Source: an uncultured Candidatus Saccharibacteria bacterium (lineage in GTDB: Bacteria > Patescibacteriota > Minisyncoccia > Phycocordibacterales > UBA9973). Taken from it: a DNA stretch of 64,000 bases. The stretch covers positions 27,556-91,555 of the forward strand of contig CAYXYC010000001.1 in assembly GCA_964469225.1 (NCBI GenBank), read 5' to 3'. Numbering within the stretch: position 1 is the first letter of the stretch; each line of letters starts with the position of its first letter. The position numbers and the translations under genes are program-made. The notes beneath the pieces are model-generated. The model made no database searches and had not been told where the DNA came from. It saw only the letters and a program-made list of their open reading frames with translations. Positions 14,744 through 60,810 of the stretch are shown here, one piece after another.

Positions 14744-15178
14744 ATGCAATTTAAGGTTCCACAATTCATTGATATTGAGGATACATTGTTTGGGCCATTT
14801 ACCTTTCGTCAATTCGCCTACCTTGTTGGTGGAGGAGGAATGATTTTTGTATTGTATAAATTGTTACCTTTTTGGATTGCCATTTTCTTTATTCTTCCAA
14901 TCGGAATTTTGACTGGACTTTTAACTTTTTACAAAATCAACAACAAGCCTTTTATTTATTACCTCCAAGCGGGTATTAGTTATGCGCTCACTAGTAAACT
15001 CTATGTCTGGAAACAGCGTCTCGTAAAACCAACACAGAAAAAAGAAGAGGGGAAACCGATTGCCGAGACACCCACTGTTCCAGTCCTCTCATCAAGCAAG
15101 TTGTCTGACTTGGCATGGGGTCTTGATATGCCGACAGAAGAAACGCAAGCAACCGAAAATCAAAAACCATTAAGGTAA
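14744..15178 (+). CDS. VirB3/PrgI-like small membrane protein (two TM helices)
   Basis: 144 aa with two hydrophobic helices (GGGGMIFVLYKLLPFWIAIFFILPIGILTGLL), immediately upstream of the VirB4-like ATPase, as in Gram-positive T4SS (Tn916 orf17 / PrgI). Confidence 0.5.
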   Translation: MQFKVPQFIDIEDTLFGPFTFRQFAYLVGGGGMIFVLYKLLPFWIAIFFILPIGILTGLLTFYKINNKPFIYYLQAGISYALTSKLYVWKQRLVKPTQKKEEGKPIAETPTVPVLSSSKLSDLAWGLDMPTEETQATENQKPLR

Positions 15179-15199
15179 TGTGATATAATAATTTTATAT

Positions 15200-21872: not shown

Positions 21873-22601
21873 CTACGCAAGTGTCTTGCGAACACGCCAC
21901 TCTTGGATGATTGTAAATATATTACTTGTAATCCAATAAAGCGCAATGGCTGCTGAAATTTGGTATGCAATAAAAGCAACAAAAACAGGAAGCACATAGC
22001 GAATATTCATTTGCATACTTTCTGCTAATTGTTCTTGGAATGTTTTTGGTTGAGCGGCAGTTTGTTCTGTAACAATATCAACCTTCTTCTGTGCAAGTGG
22101 GGAAGAAAGTTTTCCTTGTATAAACTGAGAAACTCCGGCCAGAAGCGCAAGAACAATACTTTTACCATGCAAATCAATGCCGAGGAAAAAGGCGTTTAGT
22201 TGCTCTGGTTTGGTAATAAACGAATAGAGCGGTGTCGCATCAAAAGAAAGACCCTTATAAAATACATAATAAAGGGCGAAAATTACTGGTAATTGAAGAA
22301 TAATTACCAAGCAACCAGAAAAAGGGTTTACATTGTATTTTTTATATAATTCAAAGGTTTTTCGTGCTTGTTCTTCTTTATTAGGGAAATCTTTCTTTAT
22401 AGCCTTTAATTCTGGCTCAATGCGTTTTGTGAGAATCTGGCTTCGGATTGATTTCTTTGTAAGAGGGGAAAGAATGGTCTTAACAAGAATTGTTAAAATA
22501 ACAATCCCTAAACCAATATTTCCAGCCGTTATTGTGCTAACAATAAAAATGAGCGTATTGTATATCGGCTCATATAAAAAAGTATTCCATAGTGATGACA
22601 T
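21873..22601 (-). CDS. yidC: membrane protein insertase YidC (short form)
   Basis: Multi-TM 242-aa protein in conserved operon position between yidD and jag. Confidence 0.75.
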   Translation of the reverse strand: MSSLWNTFLYEPIYNTLIFIVSTITAGNIGLGIVILTILVKTILSPLTKKSIRSQILTKRIEPELKAIKKDFPNKEEQARKTFELYKKYNVNPFSGCLVIILQLPVIFALYYVFYKGLSFDATPLYSFITKPEQLNAFFLGIDLHGKSIVLALLAGVSQFIQGKLSSPLAQKKVDIVTEQTAAQPKTFQEQLAESMQMNIRYVLPVFVAFIAYQISAAIALYWITSNIFTIIQEWRVRKTLA

Positions 22602-22670
22602 CTCTCTATTGTATAGGAAAAGAAGCCATCATAAAAGGTTGATTTATTTAAAAGTCGTTGTTTGCCCTTT

Positions 22671-22877
22671 TTAAATTAGGGGATCGTAACGGTTTTTCTG
22701 CCAAGGATGACACCTGGCAATTCTTTTACACCCAAGCCAAAAGCCCATTAAAAATCCATATTTTTCAATGGCATTTTTTGTATATTCGGAGCATCTTGGA
22801 ATAAAAACACAAGATGAGTGGCTCTGTGCGGGGGTTGATTGGTAAAGAGATATGAGGAATATGGCTAGTTTTTTCAT
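22671..22877 (-). CDS. yidD: membrane protein insertion efficiency factor YidD
   Basis: 68 aa with conserved CRFIPRCSEY...CHPW cysteine motif. Confidence 0.8.
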   Translation of the reverse strand: MKKLAIFLISLYQSTPAQSHSSCVFIPRCSEYTKNAIEKYGFLMGFWLGCKRIARCHPWQKNRYDPLI

Positions 22878-22878
22878 T

Positions 22879-23196
22879 TTAATATCTCACCTTACGCAAA
22901 AGTGCATCCATGTCGTTTTTTATATCTTGGGTTGTGGCTTTTGATGCCTCGTTTTTAAAGAAGAAAATCGCCGTAATTGGTGGCAGACTTAGTGTTCTAA
23001 GGACATTATATCCTTTTCTTCTAAGGCTATTTCGCTTAACAGCCCTTTTTTCAACGCCTTTTGGGACAACACAAGCATACCTTGGTCCGCCGTAAGCCAT
23101 AAATCGCAACGAAAAAAGCGGGGAAGAGATTACTTTCCCGTCTTTCATAAGAGAAAGGAATACATCCTTCGTTACCCGCTTTTTCTTTGGAATCAT
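22879..23196 (-). CDS. rnpA: RNase P protein component RnpA
   Basis: RNR-type motif AVKRNSLRRKGY; ATG at 23196 (MIPKKKR). The ORF-track GTG start at 23247 would overlap the rpmH 3' end. Confidence 0.75.
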   Translation of the reverse strand: MIPKKKRVTKDVFLSLMKDGKVISSPLFSLRFMAYGGPRYACVVPKGVEKRAVKRNSLRRKGYNVLRTLSLPPITAIFFFKNEASKATTQDIKNDMDALLRKVRY

Positions 23197-23209
23197 TGAA
23201 TTATAAGGC

Positions 23210-23350
23210 TTATTTTGCGATTGAGACCTTTTTTCGGCCCTTAGCACGGCGACGAGCTGTTACCTTTTTGCCGCCAGGAGTTTTTGCGCGAGAAAGAAAA
23301 CCGTGGGTTTTCGCTCTTTTTCGCTTGTTTGGGTTGTATGTTATAGACAT
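23210..23350 (-). CDS. rpmH: 50S ribosomal protein L34
   Basis: Hand translation of the minus strand gives [46 protein letters not shown] (46 aa); not in the ORF track because it is under 60 aa. Confidence 0.9.
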
Positions 23351-23481
23351 ATTAGGAAATATATAACAAAATCAGTCATTATGCAATGTTTTGTTTCGTA
23401 TGTTACTATCCACACATTATTAACAGGTTAATCCAGATATTGAATAAATCCCTGTTTTCAAATGAGAGTATACTAGAATGT

Positions 23482-29805: not shown

Positions 29806-29845
29806 AAAACACCCTTCGACCACAGTCGAAGGGTGTTTTATTTTA
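29806..29845. terminator. bidirectional intrinsic terminator
   Basis: aaaacacccttcgaccacagtcgaagggtgttttatttt hairpin flanked by A- and T-runs. Confidence 0.65.
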
Positions 29846-30025
29846 TAGATAATCAGTAGCGCTTCCGTCGAGACCAGCGAATTCTTCACTCATATCTTCG
29901 TCTTCTCCAGACAAGATATCATCGTCTTCCTCAACAACAGCATCTTCGATGGCGTCATCAAGGTCAACTTCTTCGCTCGCATCTAATTCGTCTTCTTTAA
30001 GAACTTCTTCTTCGTCGTAACTCAT
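29843..30025 (-). CDS. extremely acidic 60-aa hypothetical protein
   Basis: About half of residues are D/E (…EEDDDILSGEDEDMSEEF…); lies downstream of ruvC on the same strand. Confidence 0.4.
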   Translation of the reverse strand: MSYDEEEVLKEDELDASEEVDLDDAIEDAVVEEDDDILSGEDEDMSEEFAGLDGSATDYL

Positions 30026-30128: not shown

Positions 30129-30620
30129 TTATAGTTTTTCACAGGCGATACAAGTAATTCCAATCGCAATTGCATCAAGCTCGTCGTCAGAGTTAATTTT
30201 TTTTTCAATATGTATAAGTCGTGGAACCATATCCATAACCATCTTTTTGTCCGCTTTTCCGTAACCAGTAACCGCAACTTTAATTTGTGGAGGAGTGTAT
30301 TCAAAAATAGACAATCCATTTCGCGAGGCGCTATAAATAATAACCCCGCGTGCCTCAGATACTCCCATACCTGTTTTCTGGTTGTTTGTTAAATATAGTT
30401 TTTCAATCGAGAGTATTTTTGGTGAATATTCGGAGATTGTGTTTTCAATTTTTTCACCAATCAATCTTAGTCGTTCAGGAAAGGGAAGTTTTGAGTTTGT
30501 TTTAAAACACTCGGAATACATAAGTCTTTCCTTTTGACCCTTTTGTTTTTCAAGAACAGCAATTCCAAGGCGCTCAAATCCAGGATCAATGGCGAGAATT
30601 ATGGGACTATTTGTTTTCAT
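30129..30620 (-). CDS. ruvC: crossover junction endodeoxyribonuclease RuvC
   Basis: IILAIDPGFERLGIAVLE N-terminal catalytic motif; 163 aa. Confidence 0.85.
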   Translation of the reverse strand: MKTNSPIILAIDPGFERLGIAVLEKQKGQKERLMYSECFKTNSKLPFPERLRLIGEKIENTISEYSPKILSIEKLYLTNNQKTGMGVSEARGVIIYSASRNGLSIFEYTPPQIKVAVTGYGKADKKMVMDMVPRLIHIEKKINSDDELDAIAIGITCIACEKL

Positions 30621-31605
30621 CTATGTGTTCGAAGCCTAAATGCTCATAACCCTTTTTTGTTACTGTACGACCGCGCGTTGTGCGTTCGAGTAGTCCAAGT
30701 TGAATAAGATACGGCTCAATAACTTCTTCAATAGTTGCTTCTTCTTCACTTGTTGCCGCGGAGATTGTTTTCAATCCTACGGGTCCACCATTAAATTTTT
30801 CAATAATTATTTCAAGTACTCGACGGTCAGACGCAGTCAAACCAATTTCATCAACTTCAAGAAGTGCCAAGGCTTTTTTTACTGCATCTTTAGTGAGTGG
30901 TGTTTTGTGAACCTGAGCATAATCACGGCATCGTTTTAGAAAATAATTTGCGGTTCGTGGGGTAAATCGCGCGCGAGAAGCGATTTCATTGAGTGCTTCA
31001 TCGTCGAGTTTTACACCGAGAATCTGCGCTGAACGAGCCACGATTTTTTTGATTTCATCGTGCGTATAAAATTCAAGACGAAATACACCGCCAGAGAATC
31101 GTGAGCGAAGCGGGGAAGAGAGAAGTGCAATGCGTGTGGTTGCAGCGATGAGTGTAAACGGCGGAAGTTCAAGTTGTATAGTGCGAGCAGATGGACCCTT
31201 ACCGATAATAATATCAAGAACACCCGACTCCATTGCCGGATAGAGCACTTCCTCAACCATTTTGTTTAGGCGATGAATCTCGTCAATAAATACAATATCG
31301 CCCGGGGAGAGATTTGTGAGTATTGATGCTAGGTCGCCAACTTTCTCAATAGCAGGACCCGAGGTTATTTTTATTTGTCGGCGTGTTTCGTGGGCAATAA
31401 GATGGGCAAGTGTTGTTTTGCCAAGTCCTGGTGGGCCATAAAAAAGTATATGTTCTGCTGGGTGTGATCGTTCTTCAGCGGCAGTCAGAAGAATTTTGAG
31501 ATTAGCCTTGATATTTTCTTGCCCAATATATTCATCCCAGGCGCTCGGACGGAGTGTCTGGTCTAGAAATCCTGTATCAGATGTATTTGTTTCATTGTTT
31601 TTCAT
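30607..31605 (-). CDS. ruvB: Holliday junction branch-migration ATPase RuvB
   Basis: GPPGLGKTTLAHLIA Walker A; ruvB-type sensor and C-terminal winged helix; overlaps ruvC start. Confidence 0.9.
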   Translation of the reverse strand: MKNNETNTSDTGFLDQTLRPSAWDEYIGQENIKANLKILLTAAEERSHPAEHILFYGPPGLGKTTLAHLIAHETRRQIKITSGPAIEKVGDLASILTNLSPGDIVFIDEIHRLNKMVEEVLYPAMESGVLDIIIGKGPSARTIQLELPPFTLIAATTRIALLSSPLRSRFSGGVFRLEFYTHDEIKKIVARSAQILGVKLDDEALNEIASRARFTPRTANYFLKRCRDYAQVHKTPLTKDAVKKALALLEVDEIGLTASDRRVLEIIIEKFNGGPVGLKTISAATSEEEATIEEVIEPYLIQLGLLERTTRGRTVTKKGYEHLGFEHIDENK

Positions 31606-31671
31606 GATATCTATGGGCTTGCCCCGCCTGAATCCCTGACCTGAAGGTGTCAGGCGAGATCCCTTCGGGGG

Positions 31672-31700
31672 TTGACATTGTTGGTGTAGTATGATATACT
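31672..31700 (+). promoter_or_regulatory. near-consensus sigma70 promoter TTGACA-17-TATACT, plus strand
   Basis: TTGACA at 31672-31677, 17-nt spacer, TATACT at 31695-31700. Confidence 0.55.
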
Positions 31701-31755
31701 CTCCTCAGAAATTAATTACATCGTAATTATAGCACTTTGATTTTTTGTTCGCATT

Positions 31756-31910
31756 GAGAGAACAGAAATCTCTAAGCAATCGGCCCCGTGCTCTATATCC
31801 GTGCGTAGGACGCTCTGGTTTGTATTTATATTTACTGGGACTATCCTGTAATCGTATATTACTTTGGTCACGCATGTTTCCAAAGGATTGTTTAGAGATT
31901 TCTGTTCTCT
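31756..31910. repeat. 25-bp long-range inverted repeat (24/25 match) enclosing 104 bp
   Basis: gagagaacagaaatctctaagcaatc (31756-31781) vs gattgtttagagatttctgttctct (31886-31910). Confidence 0.7.
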
Positions 31911-31941
31911 TTCTATTTTGTTCCATTTAAATTCATTAATA

Positions 31942-32325
31942 ATGACGAATGTAAAAGAAGCTCTGACAGCACACTTTCCCTTGTTGGGATTAAAAACCCC
32001 TGCCGATCTCATCGGCAAGGTAATGACACTCTCGTTTTTCCAGCTGGAAAATGAGCAATGGTTTAAAAGGGAAGTTTATTTCCTTATACAATCCATGGAT
32101 GTTGGACCACTTGTCCCATGGAAAGACAATAAGTATATTTGTCTTTCTTCCAACTGGATACCGATTGGCTGCGGGCAATGTGTTCGAATTGTTTTTGAGT
32201 CAAACGGATATAGTATCCAACTCAAAGACAAAAGATCACCACTTCCTGTTTCCGCTTGGTTTAACTCCCATGGTTCGGGTTATCCATCGGAGGGCTTAAA
32301 GGAGGGGTCCTTTAAGATTAGTTGA
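31942..32325 (+). CDS. possible small hypothetical protein (W/C-containing) within the orphan transcription unit
   Basis: 127-codon ATG ORF with protein-like composition, but no clear RBS and no homology recognised; may be non-coding. Confidence 0.25.
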   Translation: MTNVKEALTAHFPLLGLKTPADLIGKVMTLSFFQLENEQWFKREVYFLIQSMDVGPLVPWKDNKYICLSSNWIPIGCGQCVRIVFESNGYSIQLKDKRSPLPVSAWFNSHGSGYPSEGLKEGSFKIS

Positions 32326-32345
32326 TACCCTTTGTTTTTTTAACT

Positions 32346-32373
32346 TGCCGCACTGCTAAACAGTGCGGTTTTT
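32346..32373 (+). terminator. intrinsic terminator for the plus strand
   Basis: ccgcactg-ctaaa-cagtgcgg followed by TTTTTT. Confidence 0.65.
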
Positions 32374-34073
32374 TATTCTTCATAAAAATCCACCACACTG
32401 CCGACTTCTTCGTATGAGGTGATGCCTTTCAAAATTTTCACAATTCCATCTTCTTTCATGTCGAGATATCCTTGATGTGAAGCAATTTCTTTAATCTCTC
32501 GTTCTGATGGATTGTTTGGAATTATTTTTTCAATTTCAGCTGTTTTTAATATTGCCTCAAAAATACCCAAGCGTCCTTTGTAGCCAGTATTGTTACATTC
32601 TGCACAGCCAACTGGTCCGTATATTTTCGGCTGAGCATTTGTGTCAACGCCATATTTTGTAAAGTCTTTACCGTTTGCAGTTGCCATGTCGGTGATTTTT
32701 TTGATAACGCGTGCTTGCTCATCAGTGAGCGCTATTTCTTTTTTGCAGTGTACGCAGAGTTTTCGTACGAGTCGTTGAGCGATTGAGAGCGACAGCGCTG
32801 ATACGAGAATCTTTGGATTAACTTCAAGGTCAATCAAACGGGGAATTACGCCAGCGGCATTGTTGGTATGAAGTGTTGAGAACACAAGGTGACCAGTGAG
32901 CGCTGATTCAACAGCGATTTTTGCTGTTTCAGAATCACGAATTTCTCCCACCATAATCACATCAGGGTCTTGGCGGAGAGATGAACGCAATCCCTCAAGG
33001 AATGTATAACCCTTTTCACTTTCTGTTTGTGTTTGAGTAATTCCTGGTAAATGATATTCAATCGGGTCTTCAATTGTAATAATTTTAATTTCTGGTGAAT
33101 AAATCTTTTGTAGGAATGAGTAAAGCGTTGTTGTTTTACCGGACCCTGTTGGACCAGTAAGCAATACCATGCCGTTTGGTTTTTTGATTTCACGCATAAA
33201 TACTTCAAACAAGCTTGCTTCAATACCGAGGTCTTCTAGTTTTACGCGAATTGATTTTGGATTGAGAATACGCATAACGATTGATTCGCCATACGCGCCC
33301 GGAATGAGTGACACACGCAAACTGATTTCTTCTTCATCAAGGAAAATACTGAATCGGCCATCTTGGGCGATTGCTGAGGCTGTGATTTTGAGTCCGGCAA
33401 GTAATTTTATTCGTGAATTCAAGAATTTGTGAATCACTGGCGGAATTTCCATAACTTCATGCAAAATACCATCGAGACGGAAACGCAGGCGCACAGTATT
33501 TTCTTCTGGTTCGAAGTGAAGATCTGATGCGTTAATAGCAATTGCGCCAGCAAGAGCGATTTCAAGAATATGTGAGGTTGTGTGTGTCGCGTCTTTTTCA
33601 ACTTGTTCAATCGCGCGCCTAATGTCGTCAATATTTTTTATACCAACCATTATTTCTTTTAGGGCTGTGCCCGAAACCGCAATTGCACCAGCTTTTGATT
33701 CTGACGCGTACGAAATTTCACTGTATCTATCCCATGCTTTTTTCAAACTTATGCTTGATGCCATATAAAAATGAGGGATAAAATTGTGGTCAGTAAAATA
33801 CTTTTTTAATTCTGCGAGGAGGTCGGCGTGTGGCGCGCGTACAGCAACATGAATATCCTTGCCGAGAACTTTGAATGGCGCAATGCCCCACTCAATAGCG
33901 TCTTTTTCGGCGACCGAGCGCAAGGCCTCGTTCTCAATAGGAATACCCGATAGGTTAATAGGAGGAATCCCGTACTTTGCTTCGGCGAGAATTTGTACTA
34001 AATCTTCTTCTTCTTGTATTTTAAAATCTTCAAGGTCTTTTTTCTGTTTTTCGTCATCAAATTGGATAGTCAT
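32373..34073 (-). CDS. pilB: type IV pilus assembly ATPase PilB (GspE family)
   Basis: Walker A LLTGPTGSGKTTTLYSF; His-box STLHTNNAAG; tetracysteine CVHCKK...CAECNNTGYKGR. Confidence 0.85.
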   Translation of the reverse strand: MTIQFDDEKQKKDLEDFKIQEEEDLVQILAEAKYGIPPINLSGIPIENEALRSVAEKDAIEWGIAPFKVLGKDIHVAVRAPHADLLAELKKYFTDHNFIPHFYMASSISLKKAWDRYSEISYASESKAGAIAVSGTALKEIMVGIKNIDDIRRAIEQVEKDATHTTSHILEIALAGAIAINASDLHFEPEENTVRLRFRLDGILHEVMEIPPVIHKFLNSRIKLLAGLKITASAIAQDGRFSIFLDEEEISLRVSLIPGAYGESIVMRILNPKSIRVKLEDLGIEASLFEVFMREIKKPNGMVLLTGPTGSGKTTTLYSFLQKIYSPEIKIITIEDPIEYHLPGITQTQTESEKGYTFLEGLRSSLRQDPDVIMVGEIRDSETAKIAVESALTGHLVFSTLHTNNAAGVIPRLIDLEVNPKILVSALSLSIAQRLVRKLCVHCKKEIALTDEQARVIKKITDMATANGKDFTKYGVDTNAQPKIYGPVGCAECNNTGYKGRLGIFEAILKTAEIEKIIPNNPSEREIKEIASHQGYLDMKEDGIVKILKGITSYEEVGSVVDFYEE

Positions 34074-34168
34074 ATAAGGTTCATTATATCCCAGAGGGGG
34101 TACGGGGAGATACTTGACATTTACGCTGAAATATGATAGGATACAGCCAAATAAAGAATCTAATAAAG

Positions 34169-38430: not shown

Positions 38431-38493
38431 AACAAAAAAGCCCTTTGATATTCAAGGGGCTTTTTTAGAGGGTGGATGATATACTTGTAATAT

Positions 38494-60566: not shown

Positions 60567-60650
60567 GCGCGGGTGTTGAAACTGGTAGACAAGCATCCTT
60601 GAGGTGGATGTGCCCTTACGGGTGTGGAGGTTCAAGTCCTCTCCCGCGCA
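60567..60650 (+). tRNA. tRNA-Leu (anticodon GAG), type II
   Basis: GCGCGGG acceptor, anticodon arm CATCC-TTGAGGT-GGATG, 15-nt variable arm, GGAGG-TTCAAGT-CCTCT T-arm. Flanked on both sides by near-identical terminator hairpins (60493-60530 and 60653-60692). Confidence 0.8.
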
Positions 60651-60810
60651 CAAAACATAAAACCCGCACTAAGTGCGGGTTTTATGTTTTGTGCAGGCTC
60701 GGACCTAAAGTATTTTGTATATGCAAAATGTTCTATTCGCGCAGAAAAACACTTTCCATGGAAAGAATAAAATTATATTAATTTTAAGATGAAATGATAT
60801 ACTATATCTT

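Follow-up and report, generated by a model that had tools for sequence, protein, structure and literature searches.

A probable new family of structured small RNAs encoded back to back with ruvB in Nomurabacteria-type Paceibacteria

Introduction

The genomes of bacteria in the Candidate Phyla Radiation (CPR/Patescibacteria) are tiny, nearly all of these bacteria are uncultured, and very few regulatory RNAs are known from them. In the CPR, diverged RNase P RNAs can be recovered with the Rfam model RF00010 when its score threshold is lowered (PMC8172020). 6S RNA (ssrS; RF00013) is defined by a stem that closes the molecule, a central bubble that is large and single-stranded and from which product RNA (pRNA) is made, and a terminal stem-loop (PMC3847290). 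The bacterial Y RNA YrlA is marked by stem-loops that resemble the D and T arms of tRNA and by a Ro-binding motif, GNCGAAN0-1G; its genes share a strand with rsr and are found no more than 4 kb from it (PMC4201824). Here we analyse a 64-kb stretch of contig CAYXYC010000001.1 (64,000 nucleotides; hereafter, the window), in which an element bounded by inverted repeats lies on the plus strand at 31756–31911, between two minus-strand genes that encode RuvB (30607–31605) and a PilB-type T2SSE ATPase (32373–34073), both identified with Pfam.

We find that the inverted repeat is the closing helix, P1, of an RNA of ~156 nt whose junction carries the arms P2, P3–P4 and P5, and that the gene for this RNA is single-copy, clade-wide and nearly always divergent from ruvB. 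Comparative evidence makes it very probable that this is a real structured small RNA (sRNA) gene of a new family, found in Nomurabacteria-type Paceibacteria; our search of open-access text found no description of this RNA. Like the orphan bacterial non-coding RNA (ncRNA) classes represented by the raiA motif and OLE, it emerges from comparative analysis, shows strong covariation, is restricted to a lineage and has no fixed downstream gene. It differs from them in that Rfam shows no relationship, the element is much smaller than OLE, GOLLD or ROOL, and it belongs to CPR bacteria, in which it is locked to the ruvB promoter region. The arrangement also recalls the oxyS/oxyR and gcvB/gcvA pairs, in which an sRNA and a protein gene have conserved, overlapping back-to-back promoters; here, however, the partner is the DNA-repair motor RuvB and not the transcriptional regulator of the sRNA. 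A preliminary description of this region had recognized a promoter, the repeat and a terminator. The clade-wide conservation, the divergent and overlapping ruvB promoter, and the position of the downstream open reading frame (ORF) and terminator within a genome-specific insertion go beyond it.

A single-copy element conserved beside ruvB

The inverted repeat, which the preliminary description had spotted, has 25-nt arms (31757–31781 and 31886–31910) that are 96% complementary and enclose 104 nt; it can be extended to 26 bp (31756–31781/31886–31911). Allowing up to three mismatches, the arm sequence occurs at just these two sites in the window (chance expectation, 0). Compared with shuffled sequences, the element folds with z = −5.6 to −6.9.

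For comparison, we used 80 related loci from RuvB-bearing species-level genomes labelled Candidatus Nomurabacteria, Paceibacterota or Patescibacteria, in which RuvB is 73–91% identical to that of the window. A further RuvB protein search aimed at remoter lineages returned close relatives only (85–92% identity). Searches of the intergenic region with blastn showed that window positions 31672–31921, which comprise the promoter and the repeat-bounded element, are kept in the majority of the 80 loci, directly 5′ of ruvB, with no conservation downstream of about 31940. By nhmmer and blastn, the element lies upstream of ruvB in 67 of the 80 loci. R1, a covariance model made from 65 sequences, raised this to exactly one sense-strand match in each of 78 loci, scoring 41–168 bits on the sense strand and 26–63 bits on the opposite strand; the two loci without a match are short contigs that lack the upstream DNA. 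The window copy itself scores 159 bits in sense and 57 bits in antisense.

An exact-pattern scan of metagenome contigs revealed at least 120 further contigs with the element, and the same scan of viral contigs found no copies. Among the metagenome contigs listed, each one with ruvB has the element 76–313 nt upstream of that gene on the opposite strand. All of the 100 metagenome contigs that were searched with R1 matched, at 98–168 bits.

The sole exception to the position 5′ of ruvB is locus L037, where the RNA (L037:8907–9084) lies 1.9 kb downstream of ruvB. There it adjoins an unrelated 449-amino-acid (aa) ORF, and the usual position is taken by genes that we take to be GNAT/ASCH-like, from reading their translations and not from a domain search. 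On the other side, the RNA 3′ end lies 4–230 nt from the convergent pilB stop codon in 48 of 65 loci, leaving no gene downstream. The spacer between the RNA and pilB in the other 17 holds mutually unrelated cargo genes, often co-oriented with the RNA. Such variable, gene-bearing spacers were seen in L003, L004, L008, L009, L014, L021, L026, L028, L044, L060, L061 and L070; from reading of the sequences, their genes presumably include some for lipoproteins and secreted proteins, one for a membrane protein of DUF2207-like type and others for PNP-, LOG- and DapB-like proteins.

Covariation supports a four-way junction

RNAalifold followed by manual refinement yielded a four-way junction built from five helices, P1–P5. 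The 26 bp of P1, formed by a 5′ strand at 31756–31781 and a 3′ strand at 31886–31911, are paired in 98–99% of cases, and its inner 15 nt (AAUCUCUAAGCAAUC) are nearly invariant within the clade. P2 (31782–31792) is a short hairpin of 3–4 bp that abuts P1, with a covarying pair (34/45) that occurs as CG, GC, GU and AU. P3 consists of 7 bp, all seven of which have changed on both sides; its 5′ strand lies at 31795–31801 and its 3′ strand, at 31853–31859, leads into a conserved junction UUAC. In comparative alignments, the most widely conserved core is the P4 hairpin (31807–31847), which has an invariant AGGA/UCCU base, a C/CUA asymmetric bulge, a CUGG/CUGG helix with tandem U·G/G·U pairs above it and an apex of variable length. 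P5 (31862–31885) reaches 10 bp and is stacked directly on P1; compensatory pairs were found at 10 of 10 positions in A1 and 8 of 10 in A3.

Under this fold, 91.5% of aligned positions in a MAFFT alignment are paired and 38 of 59 pairs show compensatory change, a level reached in none of 500 shuffles; when the pairing partners were shifted by 1–3 columns as a control, pairing fell to just 41–52%. The metagenome set gave 94.6% pairing and compensatory change in 31 of the 59 pairs, in an alignment that was fitted to the model and is thus biased in favour of the structure. The pairs with the highest mutual information all belong to P1–P5, and mutual information with average product correction (APC) showed no pseudoknot or tertiary covariation beyond these helices. 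On the window sequence, the covariation-supported fold has an energy of −55.5 to −58 kcal/mol, 3–5 kcal/mol above the minimum free energy of −61 kcal/mol.

The RNA strand is the plus strand of the window, as shown by the large gap between sense and antisense scores and by conserved G·U pairs at P1 alignment columns 8, 10, 11 and 26 and in the tandem of the P4 CUGG/CUGG helix. All hairpin loops and the tip of P4 are free to vary in sequence and length. Constraint is concentrated in inner P1 (AAUCUCUAAGCAAUC/GAUUGUUUAGAGAUU, with one conserved G·U), the P4 base (AGGAC...CUAUCCU), the CUGG/CUGG helix, the junction UUAC and the base of P5. Compensatory changes in P1 fall in its outer half and, in the most distant homologues (L077, L081 and L058), in the inner half as well, with the P4 core kept. 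No sign of coding was found across the element: loop lengths differ by non-multiples of three, and none of the overlapping ORFs carries a Pfam family. The RNA is retained in all members sampled from a large Nomurabacteria-type clade, where compensatory mutation has preserved its helices, so it very likely does something important.

We also considered a DNA-level operator or cruciform for the invariant arms and rejected it, because a conserved G·U asymmetry distinguishes the two arms and they lie at varying distances from the ruvB −10 element. Separately, the segment from P4 to the P3 3′ strand at 31831–31860 resembles a promoter (TTTACT-18-TATATT, 9/12 matches). As other lineages do not share its −10-like part, the resemblance is probably a coincidence of AT-rich sequence.

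Predicted overlapping promoters and the 3′ end of the RNA

The near-consensus plus-strand sigma70 promoter of the preliminary description (TTGACA-17-TATACT, 31672–31700) held up, with 11 of 12 matches and a TG that extends the −10 element; transcription of the RNA would start near 31707. Of 171 loci, 139 have a sigma70 match of 10/12 or better in the 150 nt upstream on the RNA strand, compared with 3.3% of random windows, and the TG extension precedes the −10 element in 139 of the 171. Between the predicted start and P1 lies a 5′ leader of ~50 nt (31707–31755) that varies among relatives in length and sequence, the distance from the −10 element to P1 ranging from about 13 to 120 nt. One subgroup of loci has an additional proximal TAGTATAAT 5–35 nt before P1.

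Reading the opposite strand, we found an extended −10 element, TGCTATAAT, at 31734–31726 (minus strand) that overlaps the RNA leader and is likely the ruvB promoter, from which ruvB transcription would start near 31719. In 128 of 171 loci, a TGnTATAAT on the ruvB strand occupies the equivalent place, between the RNA promoter and P1 and no more than 150 nt upstream of the RNA; its spacing to P1 is not constant. The RNA and ruvB promoters are thus back to back and overlapping, with predicted starts about 12 bp apart. Because of this overlap, occupancy of one promoter would probably exclude use of the other, which would couple the transcription of the two genes inversely.

A 66-nt GC-rich stretch (31606–31671) separates the ruvB ATG from the RNA promoter and would fall in the ruvB 5′ untranslated region (5′-UTR). 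It contains hairpins CCUGAC...GUCAGG and CCC-UUCG-GGG, occurs once in the window and in none of the relatives, and folds no better than shuffled sequences (z = −1.3).

At the other end of the RNA, the 3′ strand of P1 leads into a run of at least five T residues in 134 of 171 homologues. The window copy belongs to the minority with a broken U-run (CUGUUCUCUUUCUAUU), in which the longest run is three. Alignment with relatives showed that some have comparable small terminator hairpins, often bidirectional, between the RNA and pilB.

A genome-specific insertion holds the downstream ORF and terminator

Alignment with L006, L013 and L018 revealed that the window carries a genome-specific insertion of roughly 430 bp (31920–32346, plus strand) between the RNA and the pilB stop codon, with no DNA or protein match in the 80 relatives. 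The insertion ends at an intrinsic plus-strand terminator (32347–32375), a clean example of which had been noted before. In our hairpin scan it consists of a 9-bp hairpin with six GC pairs (32347–32369) followed by TTTTTTATT; its make-up is GCCGCACUG-CUAAA-CAGUGCGG plus UUUUUUAUU, and the U-tract and the pilB stop codon overlap. With the U-run after P1 decayed in this genome, plus-strand transcription here probably reads through the insertion to this terminator, which is why the region had first looked like one long transcription unit.

Within the insertion, the ORF list contains a plus-strand ATG ORF of 127 codons (31942–32325), the coding potential of which had been called doubtful. Our results point the same way. 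A word-indexed search among 5.8 billion proteins matched the ORF to itself alone, and exhaustive HMMER searching of 1.8 billion representatives gave only weak, repeat-inflated matches, in which residues 64–114 align with single FG-GAP blades in large repeat proteins. No Pfam family matched the ORF, searches of phage (tblastn) and plasmid (blastn) sequences found no further homologue, and an exact-sequence look-up among contigs returned no match. Its codon score of −0.004 lies below the minimum of 0.035 in native-gene windows (0.361 ± 0.119), and its G+C content at third codon positions (GC3) is 0.43 compared with 0.29 for native genes; by codon usage, its own frame nevertheless outscores the other five. 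Single-sequence AlphaFold2 models were of low confidence (pLDDT 58.8 for the best and 35–39 for the other four). The ORF is best read as foreign or decayed DNA. The earlier observation that it lacks a visible ribosome-binding site stands but is uninformative, since only 5 of the 31 long genes of the window have a Shine–Dalgarno-like motif. The protein database lists this spurious ORF beside the RNA as a predicted protein from NCBI.

The hairpin scan also detected a terminator-like hairpin on the minus strand inside the insertion and ORF (31998–32020; 10 bp, six GC pairs, then GUUUUUAAUC), a possible end of the pilB transcript. As the hairpin adjoining the pilB stop codon terminates plus-strand transcripts only, the pilB mRNA may extend by about 350 nt and overlap the plus-strand read-through transcript.

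A proposed role for the RNA and its alternatives

With a promoter, a terminator-like 3′ end, a covarying structure and no coding potential, all predicted from sequence, the locus has the make-up of a stand-alone structured sRNA gene. Covariation, the R1 matches and the folding z-scores uphold the earlier suggestion of a structured sRNA closed by the inverted repeat. The RNA is apparently highly expressed. We propose that it functions in trans as a scaffold or by binding protein, either within a ribonucleoprotein (RNP) or as a sequestering RNA. P1 and the U-run would together form its own terminator, which would seal both ends in a long duplex and protect the transcript, and the outer, sequence-variable half of P1 might be a processing stem. 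The recognition surface would comprise the junction, the P4 base (AGGAY...CUGG/CUGG...CUAUCCU, which includes the tandem G·U) and inner P1, in which a G·U is conserved. This binding mode is deduced from which positions are conserved, and we put forward protein binding as the specific mechanism only tentatively. Taken overall, a new sRNA gene with a protein-binding role is the account that we favour as reasonably probable.

Several points weigh against this account. The start site, 3′ end and abundance of the RNA are all read from the DNA, and it is the pattern of conservation that suggests protein binding. An uninterrupted 26-bp duplex is normally a substrate for RNase III, so the mature form may be unlike the primary transcript. 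Canonical terminators lie slightly downstream of P1 in several relatives, and P1 with its U-run may not be the sole or main terminator. Finally, the tight linkage to ruvB means that the act of transcription, through promoter competition, could be as important as the RNA product.

Whatever its role, the RNA is a concrete and easily synthesized object for experiments, and R1 provides a ready covariance model for annotating these genomes, in which pipelines now leave the region as empty intergenic DNA. A more far-reaching idea, which we regard as conceivable but doubtful, is that this is the first housekeeping-type ncRNA class specific to CPR/Patescibacteria. It would then be either the RNA subunit of an unrecognized RNP or a new, four-way-junction route to 6S-like global regulation, with its gene interlocked with the ruvB promoter.

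Searches against known RNA families bear on several of the alternatives. At gathering thresholds, Rfam 15 found only tRNAs in the whole window. At E ≤ 10, window positions 31550–32450 and two GC-rich homologues (L074 and L035) matched no family, including 6S, signal recognition particle (SRP) RNA, RNase P, tmRNA and Y RNA; the chance hits at this level (NmsRb, SraC, ctRNA and snoRNAs) were scattered and inconsistent between homologues. SRP RNA, RNase P RNA and tmRNA gave no match with Rfam or ARAGORN, in line with the earlier failure to find RNase P or tmRNA signatures, and their cores (SRP domain IV with its GNRA loop, RNase P P4 and the tmRNA tag) are absent; with respect to the GNRA loop, the apical loops of the element are variable. 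A likeness of CCUGUAAUC...ACUUUGG to the SRP Alu domain was rejected, as only one sublineage shows it and the topology is different.

The alternative that survives best, although we consider it unlikely, is that the element is the 6S RNA of these CPR bacteria or its functional analogue, an abundant open-promoter mimic that binds the sigma70 holoenzyme. P1 would then correspond to the downstream duplex and also to the template for pRNA, the P2 side to the template strand of the bubble, P5 with UUAC to the non-template side and P3–P4 to the upstream duplex. The ~156-nt element shares with 6S RNA (~150–200 nt) its single copy, long 5′/3′ closing stem, clade-wide presence and a very strong sigma70 promoter of the kind typical of ssrS, and Rfam finds no canonical 6S RNA in the window. 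Moreover, every G·U pair of P1 has its G on the 5′ strand, the would-be template, and the 3′ strand would thus lose out to a product RNA. 6S RNAs are also known to escape sequence-based detection and to be mistaken for other elements (PMC3847290). However, RF00013 and related models have no match at E ≤ 10 in three divergent homologues. The element has the closing stem but not the large bubble of the rod-like 6S fold: P2 and P5 are closed, covarying hairpins with linkers of 0–3 nt, which produces a tight four-way junction and not a bulged rod with an open, single-stranded centre. In addition, 6S stems are interrupted by bulges, whereas P1 is an unbroken 26-bp helix. The 6S-like identity that had been floated earlier is thus not borne out by these data.

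Slightly less probable again is a function mainly in cis, in which the strong back-to-back promoter throttles ruvB by occlusion and the transcript serves as a stop signal or insulator that prevents or modulates antisense transcription into pilB. The geometry is suggestive: 199 of about 200 copies occupy the same divergent position beside ruvB, the ruvB-strand TGnTATAAT lies inside the RNA leader in 128 of the 171 loci, and the RNA ends close to the pilB stop codon in most loci. Yet a terminator or insulator needs no 104-nt junction domain with at least 30 covarying pairs and invariant internal motifs. The RNA is also kept in L027, L035 and L050, where pilB has moved elsewhere, and in L037, where the RNA itself is separated from the ruvB 5′ end, and the spacing between the ruvB −10 element and P1 is not fixed.

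A riboswitch-like ligand sensor, in which the junction would decide on termination at P1 and the U-run and so control downstream cargo genes or antisense transcription into pilB, appears improbable. As in aptamers, conservation is centred on the junction and internal loops, with variable peripheral loops; P1 leads directly into the U-run, and 17 of 65 loci have downstream genes that are often co-oriented with the RNA. Against this, a 26-bp P1 would form irrespective of ligand, the mutual-information analysis revealed no alternative anti-terminator pairing, no riboswitch family matched in Rfam (E ≤ 10, three homologues), and downstream genes are mutually unrelated where present and missing altogether from 48 of the 65 loci.

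We give still less credence to the view, anticipated in the preliminary description, that the structured region is simply the 5′-UTR or leader of a real gene for the 127-aa protein. Element and ORF do share a strand, with a terminator after the ORF; the ORF frame scores above the other five, and the absence of a Shine–Dalgarno motif is no argument against coding in a genome that usually lacks one. But the ORF is missing from all relatives that keep the RNA, it has no homologue but itself, its codon usage is below the native-gene minimum with atypical GC3, and its AlphaFold2 model is of low confidence.

The idea of a bacterial Y RNA (Yrn1/YrlA-like), with a terminal stem that binds Ro60/Rsr and a multi-stem effector domain, is largely refuted. 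The outlines are alike, both having a long end stem constrained in sequence, a central multi-hairpin module and a U-rich 3′ end. Unlike YrlA, which is encoded within 4 kb of rsr (PMC4201824), the element has no TROVE/Rsr domain among ten neighbouring genes, within about 5 kb, as judged with Pfam. Nor does it have the tRNA-like T and D arms or the stem bulge; the GNCGAAN0-1G motif is not in the element alignment, and Rfam gives no Y RNA match.

Last, although 25-bp terminal inverted repeats around about 100 bp had first raised the prospect of a 154-bp miniature inverted-repeat transposable element (MITE) or other mobile inverted-repeat element, we exclude it for practical purposes, because the element is single-copy (once in the 64-kb window and, across about 1.7 Mb of related DNA, a single sense copy at each locus) at an orthologous, syntenic site in about 200 lineages, has no flanking direct repeats or target-site duplication and no internal direct repeat, is absent from viral contigs, and has five helices that evolve by compensatory, G·U-tolerant change.

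Flanking genes and other features of the window

Pfam assigned products in the neighbourhood of ten genes as PBP1 (a class A penicillin-binding protein, PBP), TyrRS, RuvC, RuvB, PilB, TsaE and an acyltransferase. Between ruvC and tyrS lies a 60-aa ORF (29843–30025, minus strand) that is extremely acidic (D/E-rich); it has no Pfam family, and in an independent assembly (L001) of this organism it is likewise a called gene. Farther away, ARAGORN identified a tRNA-Leu(gag) at 60567–60651 that is not listed in the Rfam gathering search, giving seven tRNAs with ARAGORN and six with Rfam. A second unusually long gap between long ORFs (785 nt, 22601–23386) interrupts an otherwise tightly packed window; its ORFs are all at most 122 aa, and it has no Rfam hit.

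Many long genes of the window have a TATAAT-like box 7–12 nt 5′ of the ATG, as seen at 34074–34098, 15175–15199, 38469–38493 and 60786–60810. This placement suggests that leaderless or near-leaderless mRNAs are widespread in this genome.

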